Positions 15,766 through 48,689 of a stretch of 64,000 bases of DNA are shown here, piece after piece (position 1 is the stretch's first letter; the number at the start of each line of letters is the position of its first letter). Location of the stretch: sequence record MN850647.1. One strand, given 5' to 3'. This DNA comes from Escherichia phage tootiki. The notes beneath the pieces are model-generated. The model worked only from the letters and a program-made list of their open reading frames with translations. It made no database searches and was not told the DNA's origin. A program made the position numbers and the translations under genes.

Positions 15766-15842
15766 TTGGGGTGACCTACGGGATTTGAACCCGTATAGAC
15801 CATGTTCACAGCATGGGTCATTACCATTTATGATAAGGCCAC
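15766..15842 (-). tRNA. tRNA-His (anticodon GTG)
   Basis: acceptor GTGGCCT/AGGTCAC, D-stem TCAT/ATGA, anticodon loop CTGTGAA, discriminator C, CCA encoded. Confidence 0.7.
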
Positions 15843-18624: not shown

Positions 18625-18699
18625 TGGTTGTAGGTGAGGGTATCGAACCCTCTTCTAACGGTTATCAGCCGTTTGCATTACCATTTATGCTAACCCACA
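18625..18699 (-). tRNA. tRNA-Ile (anticodon GAT)
   Basis: D-stem GCAT/ATGC, anticodon stem AACGG/CCGTT loop CTGATAA, T-arm GAGGG-TTCGATA-CCCTC, discriminator A. Confidence 0.7.
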
Positions 18700-23197: not shown

Positions 23198-23244
23198 GTG
23201 TGAATAGGGGCTGATGCCCCTTTAACTATTTATAAGGATATTTA

Positions 23245-24497: not shown

Positions 24498-24961
24498 TGC
24501 AACTCTCAAGAAAAGGTTTAGAAGCTATTAAGTTCTTTGAAGGTCTGAAGTTAGAGGCTTACAAAGACTCCGCCGGAATCCCAACAATTGGGTATGGTAC
24601 AATCCGTATTGACGGAAAACCTGTTAAGATGGGTATGAAAATTACTGCTGAACAAGCTGAACAGTATCTTCTCGCAGATGTTGAAAAGTTTGTTGCAGCA
24701 GTGAACAAAGCTATCAAGGTTCCAACCTCTCAGAATGAGTTCGATGCACTTGTAAGTGAAACATACAACATTGGTATCACAGCTATGCAGGATTCTACAT
24801 TTATTAAGCGCCACAATGCTGGTAATAAGGTAGGTTGTGCAGAAGCTATGCAGTGGTGGAACAAGATTACAGTCAAAGGTGAGAAGGTCACTTCAAACGG
24901 TCTGAAAAACAGACGTAGAATGGAAGCTGACATTTATCTTGACAGTGTATATCCAAAGTAA
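24497..24961 (+). CDS. endolysin, GH24 lysozyme family
   Basis: 154 aa; LEAYKDSAGIPTIGYG signature with catalytic E/D/T pattern of T4-type lysozymes. Confidence 0.8.
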   Translation: MQLSRKGLEAIKFFEGLKLEAYKDSAGIPTIGYGTIRIDGKPVKMGMKITAEQAEQYLLADVEKFVAAVNKAIKVPTSQNEFDALVSETYNIGITAMQDSTFIKRHNAGNKVGCAEAMQWWNKITVKGEKVTSNGLKNRRRMEADIYLDSVYPK

Positions 24962-24970
24962 TATCTTCAT

Positions 24971-24999
24971 AGGCTCCTTCGGGAGCCTTTTTTATTTTC
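24971..24999 (+). terminator. intrinsic terminator after endolysin
   Basis: AGGCTCC-TTCG-GGAGCCT hairpin followed by TTTTTTATTTT. Confidence 0.7.
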
Positions 25000-27888: not shown

Positions 27889-28113
27889 ATGATTAAGACA
27901 CCTGTACCAATTTTTGGATTTCCTTCTATAGAAGAGTTTAAAGTTTATCTTGACAAAAACTTCTACAACGAGCAGCCTGTTACTTTGCTGAAGAGTGACT
28001 TATCAGAGCTTCTTGATATGGTTATTAAGGCAACTTCTGAGAAGGAACCTGAGCAGAAAGCTGAGAAGAAGACTAGTAAGAAATCCGATAAGAAGACTGA
28101 AAAGTCTGAGTAA
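27889..28113 (+). CDS. hypothetical protein with Lys/Glu-rich tail
   Basis: 74 aa. Confidence 0.4.
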   Translation: MIKTPVPIFGFPSIEEFKVYLDKNFYNEQPVTLLKSDLSELLDMVIKATSEKEPEQKAEKKTSKKSDKKTEKSE

Positions 28114-30767: not shown

Positions 30768-30790
30768 AAAAAAGCCCCATATAAAGGGGC
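30768..30790 (-). terminator. intrinsic terminator after minus-strand small-gene block
   Basis: minus strand GCCCC-TTTATAT-GGGGC followed by TTTTTT. Confidence 0.55.
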
Positions 30791-30829
30791 TGTAAAGGTA
30801 TCTGGGGCTATTTAGCCCCGTTGCGGCGT

Positions 30830-31688: not shown

Positions 31689-31910
31689 TTTAGAATCTCC
31701 TAGTTTAAGGACTTTACTTAGTAGGGAGGTTATTGCCTCCCCGTTGATGAGTAATTTACTTGTTTTGATATCTGATTGCAAGCAATTTTTTAAGTTTATC
31801 TATAAAGAATCTTTTAAGTTAATCCCTTTTAGATAAACCCCCTCGAACAAATCTACCAATGTCAAGGGGCGTTGTCAATACTTTTTTGAAAGTTTTTTGT
31901 AAGTTATTGA

Positions 31911-32577: not shown

Positions 32578-32643
32578 GATTTAAGCCTCTTAAAAGCCCC
32601 TGTGAGGGGCTAATCAGTGTTTATAAGGTGATTGCATAGGTTT

Positions 32644-42631: not shown

Positions 42632-42695
42632 TGGTTCTCCTGTTTAGTTTATCGTGACAACAATTATACAGCACTCTGCACAAAATACAAATAAA

Positions 42696-42716
42696 AAAGG
42701 CCGCCGAAGCAGCCTT
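42696..42716 (-). terminator. intrinsic terminator
   Basis: minus strand GGCTGC-TTCG-GCGGCC followed by TTTTTT. Confidence 0.55.
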
Positions 42717-42731
42717 TTAAGAAATTACTTA

Positions 42732-43841: not shown

Positions 43842-43886
43842 CTTATTACTCTCTCTTGTTAGTTAATAACTCATTTTGTGAGGCTA

Positions 43887-43915
43887 TTCTAAGGGGCTTT
43901 GAAGCCCCTTGTCAA
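43887..43915 (-). promoter_or_regulatory. sigma70-like promoter with hairpin-forming spacer
   Basis: minus strand TTGACA, 17 nt spacer AGGGGCTTCAAAGCCCC, TTAGAAT. Confidence 0.5.
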
Positions 43916-48644: not shown

Positions 48645-48689
48645 CTTTTAATCTCTCTCAAAGTGGGGCTTTCAAGCCCCTATAAAGTT

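Follow-up and report, generated by a model that had tools for sequence, protein, structure and literature searches.

Results

The rIIA–rIIB junction

The window analysed here is a 64,000-nucleotide stretch of DNA from Escherichia phage tootiki (sequence record MN850647.1), and the subject of interest is the 79 nt that separate the TAA of an rIIA gene (43923–43921) from the ATG of an rIIB gene (43841), both on the minus strand. In this gap a near-consensus σ70-type promoter sequence is built around a perfect, G+C-rich hairpin that occupies its spacer. The window comes from a Felix O1-like myovirus: its rIIA–rIIB segment matches 276 phage records, nearly all from Felixounavirus or other Ounavirinae, at 90–96% identity. 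PHROGs matches identify both genes (Table 1), as an earlier, sequence-only reading of this DNA had proposed; a Pfam search with the two proteins returned no family.

On the minus strand the junction reads GAT-TAA-AGTGC-TTGACA-AGGGGCTTCAAAGCCCCT-TAGAAT-AGCCTCAC...(38 nt)...ATG. The TTGACA-18-TAGAAT pair matches the consensus at 11 of 12 positions, has A at −11 and T at −7 and a spacing within the range of 16–18 nt, and is oriented towards rIIB, whose ATG lies about 45 nt downstream of TAGAAT. The near-consensus −35 and −10 elements of the sequence-only reading are present, with a spacer of 18 nt in place of the 17 nt that it gave, because the shorter spacing makes the −10 element TTAGAA, with neither the critical A in second place nor the T in sixth. 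TAGAAT (43891–43886) alone is acceptable as a −10 hexamer, and the element ends at 43886 rather than 43887.

That the spacer is a perfect hairpin also holds, with a pairing other than the GGGGCTT-CAA-AGCCCC (7 + 3 + 6) first suggested: the arms AAGGGGCT and AGCCCCTT form 8 bp around a TCAA loop, so that the stem extends into both hexamers, by the final base of the −35 and the initial base of the −10. The isolated hairpin has a calculated stability of about −12.5 kcal/mol, and shuffled versions of the junction fold less well in 98.9% of cases. An Rfam scan of the junction (E ≤ 10) gave best scores of 12–19 bits against gathering thresholds of 39–80 bits, which is chance level. RNA begun in the predicted start zone around A43879 would be free of the hairpin, since it would start downstream of it; the structure enters RNA only when transcription reads through from rIIA, 11 nt past the rIIA stop codon.

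Table 1. Features at the rIIA–rIIB junction and promoter–terminator composites elsewhere in the window (ORF, open reading frame; SD, Shine–Dalgarno)
Feature	Position	Strand	Basis or remark
rIIA gene, 788 aa	43921..46287	minus	ORF list; phrog_612 RIIA, E=8e-189; rIIA annotated in relatives
rIIA stop codon TAA	43923-43921	minus	ORF list
−35 hexamer TTGACA, 6/6	43910..43915	minus	5 nt past rIIA stop; in 24/25 aligned relatives, TTGACT in L027
Perfect 8-bp palindrome/hairpin	43891..43910	minus	5' arm 43910-43903 AAGGGGCT, loop 43902-43899 TCAA, 3' arm 43898-43891 AGCCCCTT
Spacer AGGGGCTTCAAAGCCCCT, 18 nt, G+C-rich	43892..43909	minus	Sequence; 17 nt in Moogle/Suspvirus-type relatives
−10 hexamer TAGAAT, 5/6, A at position 2, T at position 6	43886..43891	minus	TAGAAT/TAAAAT in 25/25 aligned relatives
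Predicted transcription start zone, A43879 7 nt past −10	43877..43881	minus	From standard σ70 geometry
rIIB leader with SD-like run AGAGAGAG at 43856-43849	43842..43885	minus	Sequence
rIIB gene, 369 aa	42732..43841	minus	ORF list; phrog_609 RIIB, E=1.5e-87
Canonical intrinsic terminator after rIIB (t2 of Felix O1)	42695..42718	minus	10-bp stem, UUCG loop, T6 run; Felix O1 Table 2
Promoter-then-terminator composite	24939-24993	plus	Intergenic, just upstream of SD + ATG
Promoter-then-terminator composite	46879-46828	minus	Intergenic, just upstream of SD + ATG
Promoter-then-terminator composite	50438-50380	minus	Intergenic, just upstream of SD + ATG
Promoter-then-terminator composite	54773-54719	minus	Intergenic, just upstream of SD + ATG
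Fifth promoter–terminator site	40954-40900	minus	8/12; listed by BPROM too

Conservation in Felix-, Moogle- and Suspvirus-type phages

Junctions were gathered from 30 IMG/VR contigs and from annotated GenBank phages, and 25 of the Felix, Moogle and Suspvirus types were aligned. In the Felix type (rIIB 92–96% identical) the element is TTGACA-A-GGGGCT-(TCAA or TTGA)-AGCCCC-T-TAGAAT; in the Moogle/Suspvirus type (76–87%) it is TTGACA-GGGGCT-G(A/C)AA-AGCCCC-T-TAGAAT, with a 17-nt spacer and a GNRA loop. The hexamers are kept in 25 of 25 junctions, the sole changes being TAGAAT to TAAAAT at three loci and TTGACA to TTGACT at one, and these substitutions preserve promoter quality. Between the Felix-type and Moogle-type consensus sequences, the block comprising the stem and the −10 hexamer is identical at 21 of 21 positions, compared with 30 of 47 (64%) in the rIIB leader (Fisher P = 0.0007); the 3' coding end of rIIA is identical at 14 of 23. 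Within the leader, a GAGAGAG block is kept in the relatives and the remainder diverges. The core 6 bp of the stem are unchanged in 23 of the 25.

Two results from the alignment weigh on the other side. When only Felix-type junctions are compared, conservation of the boxes does not significantly exceed that of the remaining columns (2/26 versus 10/50 variable columns, P = 0.2), and the 25 sequences contain no compensatory pair in the stem, a result that is uninformative rather than negative and that makes constraint on RNA structure and constraint on DNA sequence inseparable within the Felix/Moogle set. Overall, we consider the assignment as a promoter to be well supported by the comparison.

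Similarity to the PeSL cassettes of T4-like phages

The arrangement resembles the promoter-early stem-loop (PeSL) cassettes defined in T4-like phages by Arbiol et al. 2010 (PMC2839356) and Comeau et al. 2014 (PMC4122927). These consist of a stop codon, an AT-rich tract, TTGACA, a stem-loop (often polyG...polyC), TATAAT, an SD sequence and ATG; the stem-loop usually lies between the −35 and −10 elements or overlaps the latter, and its proposed role is the termination or attenuation of transcription from upstream (PMC2839356; PMC4122927). PeSLs are multi-copy (about 50 per genome), are concentrated in hyperplastic regions upstream of ORFans, and mediate the insertion, deletion and replacement of flanking genes via mini-circles (PMC2839356; PMC4122927). 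In RB49, PeSL206/205 is reported to be a very strong promoter, and the stem-loop of PeSL211/210 is reported to have terminator-like activity, cutting the expression of a downstream lacZ as strongly as rrnB T1 does (PMC2839356). In the literature searched, PeSLs are discussed solely for T4-like and related large myoviruses.

Read directly from the RB49 sequence, PeSL211/210 is TTGACA-GGGGAT-CACGT-ATCCCC-TATACT and PeSL206/205 is TAA-AGTTG-TTGACA-GGGGATC-GGT-GATCCCC-TATAAT, to be compared with TAA-AGTGC-TTGACA-A-GGGGCT-TCAA-AGCCCC-T-TAGAAT in the window. The geometry, which the window shares with RB49 PeSLs 211/210, 206/205, 210/209, 192/191 and 191/190, is that of a stop codon followed after a few nucleotides by TTGACA, a G-tract/C-tract hairpin that fills the 17- to 18-nt spacer and abuts both hexamers, a TAnAAT-type −10 element, an A/C-rich leader, an SD sequence and ATG. 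Neither has a U-tract; in the tail-score scheme of d'Aubenton-Carafa, the values are 1.55 for these two RB49 PeSLs and 1.82 for the window.

The two differ in that the window belongs to an Ounavirinae (Felix O1-like) phage, where the activities are predictions, and in that the junction holds the sole spacer-hairpin copy in the window, between conserved genes rather than upstream of an ORFan in a hyperplastic region. There is also no evident A-tract upstream of its −35 hexamer: the 26 nt there are 62% A+T, against a genome average of 61%, with no A-run like the AAAAAGTTG of RB49. Gene shuffling was not seen at the rIIA–rIIB site, where every locus examined has the same gene order and the same length of junction. 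A mobile cassette was considered and rejected, since a scan of IMG/VR with GGGGCT-N4-AGCCCCTTARAAT returned Felix-like junctions and one unrelated environmental family without TTGACA. We conclude that the junction element is a very close structural analogue of the PeSLs with incomplete membership of the class, and that the idea of a combined promoter and terminator put forward in the sequence-only reading, although plausible, is not new, because it is the published PeSL model for RB49 and phi1.

Matching to the hairpin-plus-TTAAAAT pattern was all that brought up some 20 environmental IMG/VR contigs that have in common a conserved stretch ...AAAAGATAAAAGGGGCTAAAAAGCCCCTTAAAATTGATTTAAA..., unrelated to Felix O1-like phages (L078–L083, L088, L089, L093, L096–L100, L102, L106, L107, L110, L112 and L114–L116); the matches of L080 and L117 to the pattern look like chance.

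Promoters of its own are a known property of rIIB in T4, where they lie in or after rIIA; one of them, the MotA-dependent middle promoter PrIIB2, has no spacer hairpin. The arrangement of a promoter directly upstream of rIIB together with read-through from rIIA would be common to T4 and the window, the candidate in the latter being of the plain σ70 consensus type. RB49 rIIB (L121 1014–1076, minus strand) is preceded by a small ORF between rIIA and rIIB and by an extended −10 element, TGGTATAAT, followed by a stem-loop GGGCG...CGCCC, and in this respect also has an rIIB-specific pairing of promoter and hairpin.

The hairpin in distant Ounavirinae and in RNA

More distant relatives retain a junction hairpin without the canonical promoter. 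In Erwinia phage phiEa21-4 and PMBT37 the junction is TAA-tacaaac-GGGCTG-GAAA-CAGCCC; contig L064 has GGGGCTG-GAAA-CAGCCC(U), Pectobacterium phage Wc4 has TGGTGGC-CTAACAA-GCCACCA, and contig L032 has the 5' arm AAGTGGTC, a TAAT loop and AAGGCCACTT, its 3' arm being given also as GGCCACTT. The arms are unrelated and are accompanied neither by canonical hexamers nor by a U-tract, yet the hairpins have calculated stabilities of −11 to −13 kcal/mol and the junctions beat about 99% of their shuffles (P = 0.003–0.014). L032 does contain a TTGACA 17 nt upstream of a TCTAAT formed by the 5' arm and loop; as it is without the A at −11, we did not accept this pair as a confident promoter.

Since these lineages keep the hairpin and not the canonical promoter, the hairpin looks older than the promoter, and we argue that the hexamers were probably added around it in the branch leading to the Felix, Moogle and Suspvirus types. 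That the hairpin acts on RNA arriving from rIIA is suggested by its survival where there is no promoter, by the occurrence of GNRA loops in two lineages and by the lack of relation among the four stems. The GNRA loops (GAAA/GCAA), which lie on the transcribed strand in the Moogle-type and Erwinia lineages, likewise point to selection at the RNA level. Support for the structure comes solely from distant lineages that cannot be aligned; overall, we think it likely that the hairpin has a role in RNA.

In the promoter-less lineages (L033/L034 662–690, L064, L068 120–135 and L032 645–660) the hairpin is followed directly on its 3' side by CTTAAAC, in the place of the Felix-type CTTAGAAT, and the −10 element may have evolved from such a pre-existing box. 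As a genome-wide signal the CTTAAAC of Erwinia phages, Wc4 and L032 was rejected, with 17 occurrences in the window against 15.6 expected, and the extended form CCTTARAMT occurs there 6 times against 3.5; we treat it as a mark of shared ancestry of the junction and not as a motif.

What the hairpin would do in RNA is less clear-cut. Like the canonical Felix O1-like terminators (t2, t5 and others; Whichard et al. 2010, Table 2), it is a G+C-rich stem-loop on the transcribed strand just past a stop codon, and its stability is similar (−12.5 versus −14 to −16 kcal/mol). The accepted terminators of this genome, by contrast, have stems of 7–10 bp, UUCG or UACG loops and runs of four to six U (T4–T6), whereas in the junction hairpin the loop is UCAA/UUGA and the tail, UUAGAAUAG, is no U-tract. 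Several observations tell against termination here. The tail scores 1.82 when the 6-bp core is taken as the stem and 0.13 with the full 8 bp, far under the 3.3–5.3 of the canonical terminators. No terminator at the rIIA–rIIB junction is given in the Felix O1 paper, which has t2 after rIIB and none after rIIA, or in the annotation of phage Barry, and a consensus terminator scan did not call the junction hairpin. Because it has no U-tract, the hairpin would at best be a leaky terminator or a structure that protects a 3' end. By canonical criteria the case for a terminator is weak, and we rather doubt that termination is its main function in RNA, although the chance of this is appreciable. Of the sequence-only proposal that one element serves as promoter and terminator, the promoter half gains from the 25 conserved junctions, and the terminator half is left weak.

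Hairpins of the repetitive extragenic palindromic (REP) type, as between malE and malF of Escherichia coli, protect RNA from 3'-to-5' exonucleases. The junction hairpin could similarly act between the cistrons to stabilise RNA or to block its processing, shielding the 3' end of rIIA mRNA and terminating nothing, the promoter being real and built around it later. The lack of a U-tract, the survival of the hairpin without hexamers or U-tract in phiEa21-4, L064 and Wc4, the GNRA loops of two lineages and the clear difference from the genome's real terminators, with their canonical UUCG and T-run, all accord with this. On the other hand, PeSL211/210, geometrically identical and with a tail score as low, is the one reported to match rrnB T1; the Felix-type loop, UCAA or UUGA, flips freely and is not among the stabilising tetraloops; and partial termination and stabilisation are mutually compatible. 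A stabiliser pure and simple seems to us rather unlikely, while deserving to be taken seriously.

Evidence for promoter activity

Near-consensus sites are in excess in the window. Eight sites match at 11 or more of 12 positions, that at the rIIA–rIIB junction among them, against 2.0 ± 1.6 in dinucleotide shuffles, and seven of the eight are on the gene-coding minus strand; for 10 or more positions the numbers are 46 and 24.7 ± 4.9. A spacer hairpin of more than 4 bp occurs only at the rIIA–rIIB site among some 45 TTGAC-N15–19-TAnnnT candidates in the window. Towards the right end of the window there are two further TTGACA-N17-TAGAAT sites (11/12; 63336–63308 and 62997–62969, minus strand), some 340 nt from each other, and TAGAAT appears to be a favoured strong −10 element of this phage. 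In UAB_Phi87 the site was listed by BPROM at position 27,984, as TTGACA / CCTTAGAAT, with the hairpin unmentioned (PMC4837284, Table S1).

Expression data are available for Felix O1, in which reverse transcription PCR (RT-PCR) gave a timing class of 10 min for ORF2 (rIIB) and one of 25 min for ORF1 (rIIA), ORF3 and ORF4 (PMC3185647). This timing fits an rIIB-specific promoter whose unit is bounded by t2, the terminator that closes rIIB and that has a UUCG loop in 22 of 23 relatives.

Several points must be set against these. The RT-PCR timing is an endpoint, semi-quantitative measurement; the 18-nt G+C-rich spacer, the absence of an extended −10 element and that of an upstream A-tract all tend to weaken a promoter; and a literature search, partly loosely specified, for transcriptomes, transcription start sites or 5'- and 3'-end mapping in Felix O1-like phages found nothing usable.

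It might be held that the hexamers are no working promoter at all, that rIIB is expressed by read-through only, and that TTGACA and TAGAAT persist for other reasons or through shallow divergence. Sites with 9 or more matches are indeed at chance density (27 versus 24.9 in 10 kb), conservation of the Felix-type boxes does not rise significantly above background, this promoter is not in the list of the Felix O1 paper, and the Erwinia and Wc4 lineages presumably express rIIB without one. Sites with 11 or more matches, however, are about 4-fold rarer by chance than observed and are strand-biased; the block is intact even between groups whose leaders are just 64% identical; the substitutions keep the quality of the −10 element; the timing of rIIB is unlike that of its neighbours; and in RB49 a promoter of this design has been proven to be strong. 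We regard the absence of promoter function as improbable, and TTGACA-N18-TAGAAT as probably an active promoter.

The palindrome and its loop

In the 23 Felix-type junctions the loop (window 43899–43902; L003–L031; L002 2311–2314) is TCAA in 10 and TTGA, as in the type phage Felix O1, in 13. Each is the exact reverse complement of the other, and intermediates were absent. On a neighbour-joining tree of the 2.5-kb flanks the loop state requires at least 7 changes, which is indistinguishable from random assignment to the tips (7.8 ± 1.1). In the same loci the UUCG loop of t2 (22 of 23) is never flipped. Homoplasy of this kind without intermediates indicates that the perfect palindrome inverts or recombines repeatedly, apparently neutrally.

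Flip-flop inversion of hairpin loops between short perfect inverted repeats is well known in the non-coding DNA of chloroplasts. The two reverse-complement states, the lack of intermediates and the homoplasious distribution are alike in the two cases; in the present one, by contrast, the arms are just 8 bp long and the setting is the spacer of a phage promoter. Template switching or recombination are candidate mechanisms.

Two explanations at the level of DNA, each of which we consider very unlikely, bear on the palindrome. In the first, the 16–20 bp perfect palindrome would be an operator at which a dimeric regulator, from phage or host, represses transcription of rIIB from its promoter; the interval between −35 and −10 is a classic repressor position, the palindrome lies exactly between the hexamers, and its stem is invariant without covariation while the loop, its centre, varies. 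Against this, the hairpin arms of distant lineages are entirely different, even where there is no promoter, many different stems occupy the same position within the RB49 genome, and the GGGGCT/AGCCCC hairpins of the window occur in either arm order, with loops of 3–7 nt, at terminator-like positions. The differences between lineages and between the RB49 PeSLs led us to reject an operator as the principal explanation. The second, a recombination or inversion hotspot akin to PeSL-mediated shuffling rather than an element of transcriptional control, would account for the homoplasy of the loop and finds a parallel in the RB49 PeSL crossover mapped within the loop, but all Felix-type loci agree in rIIA–rIIB synteny and in the length of the junction, with neither indels nor gene swaps there, the exact cassette is nowhere else in IMG/VR, and inversion of a perfect palindrome alters just 2 spacer bases, probably neutrally.

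Promoter–terminator composites and other hairpins in the window

Of the nine canonical terminators that the window contains on the transcribed strand, four have a promoter-like site with at least 9 of 12 matches whose −10 element ends 0–5 nt before the stem (Table 1); random placement gives a mean of 0.09 such fusions, and none of 20,000 trials reached four. New transcripts from these composites are predicted to start at or within the terminator stem. They match the subclass of PeSLs in which the stem-loop is just downstream of the −10 element. In common with the rIIA–rIIB element they have a σ70-like promoter fused to an intergenic hairpin, which upstream transcripts meet in full; they differ from it in that their hairpin follows the −10 element and has the T-run of a true terminator, whereas that of the junction lies in the spacer and has none. 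Promoters fused to terminators are a possible answer to how transcription resumes past the many terminators of Felix O1, and may explain what the Felix O1 paper left as an open question.

Other intergenic gaps contain further members of a GGGGCT/AGCCCC hairpin family (23206–23221, 30773–30791, 30804–30819, 32595–32611 and 48665–48680), in either arm order and with loops of 3–7 nt. T-runs follow some of them (30791–30773 is t23 of Felix O1) and are absent from several; that at 48680–48665 lies 5 nt before an SD of the GAGAGAG type, as in rIIB. A repeated intergenic cassette (31741–31690 and 34399–34345, minus strand) consists of a hairpin GGGAGG...CCTCCC followed by aaagtCCTTAAACTAGGAGATTC and ATG, and between 31 and 35 kb the minus strand has four copies of CCTTAAACT, at 31702, 32266, 34360 and 35071. 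Hairpins resembling the T-arm of tRNA (15777–15795 and 18636–18652; for example GAGGGTTCGATACCCTC) lie in an ORF-poor stretch at about 14.6–20 kb, presumably the tRNA cluster of the Felix O1 type.

Discussion

The element at the rIIA–rIIB junction is real and conserved, and its promoter-plus-stem-loop design is already known from T4-like phages. We incline, by a modest degree, to the interpretation that it is a composite cassette of the PeSL type. On double-stranded DNA, TTGACA-N18-TAGAAT would be a promoter for the host σ70 polymerase, giving rIIB a transcript of its own that starts near A43879, carries no hairpin and ends at t2 (42718–42695). The spacer palindrome (8 bp, G4/C4) would become an RNA hairpin solely in read-through from rIIA, where it would serve as a leaky attenuator, as a structure that forms or protects a 3' end, or as both. 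Expression of rIIA and rIIB would in this way be partly uncoupled by the hairpin.

A broader and distinctly more speculative possibility, which we put forward tentatively as a whole, is that the Ounavirinae use PeSL-like promoter/stem-loop cassettes throughout the genome, as T4-like phages do, but of independent origin. In such a scheme the ancient junction hairpin would have come first and the hexamers later, possibly in different registers in different lineages, with the hairpin in the spacer in the Felix and Moogle types and overlapping the −10 position in L032. If this were true, promoters fused to terminators would account for how transcription gets past the many terminators of Felix O1, a question raised in the 2010 paper on that phage, and the rapid flipping between TCAA and TTGA would mean that the palindrome forms a DNA hairpin in vivo.

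These findings do not overturn current understanding. They provide a testable transcription map for a phage group much used in typing and biocontrol, in which rIIB would be a separate unit with its promoter at about 43915–43886 and its end at t2. For synthetic biology, the element would be a compact natural part that insulates and restarts transcription. For the phages themselves, they would extend beyond the T4-like group the PeSL principle of a hairpin in the spacer or start region that acts only on upstream transcripts.

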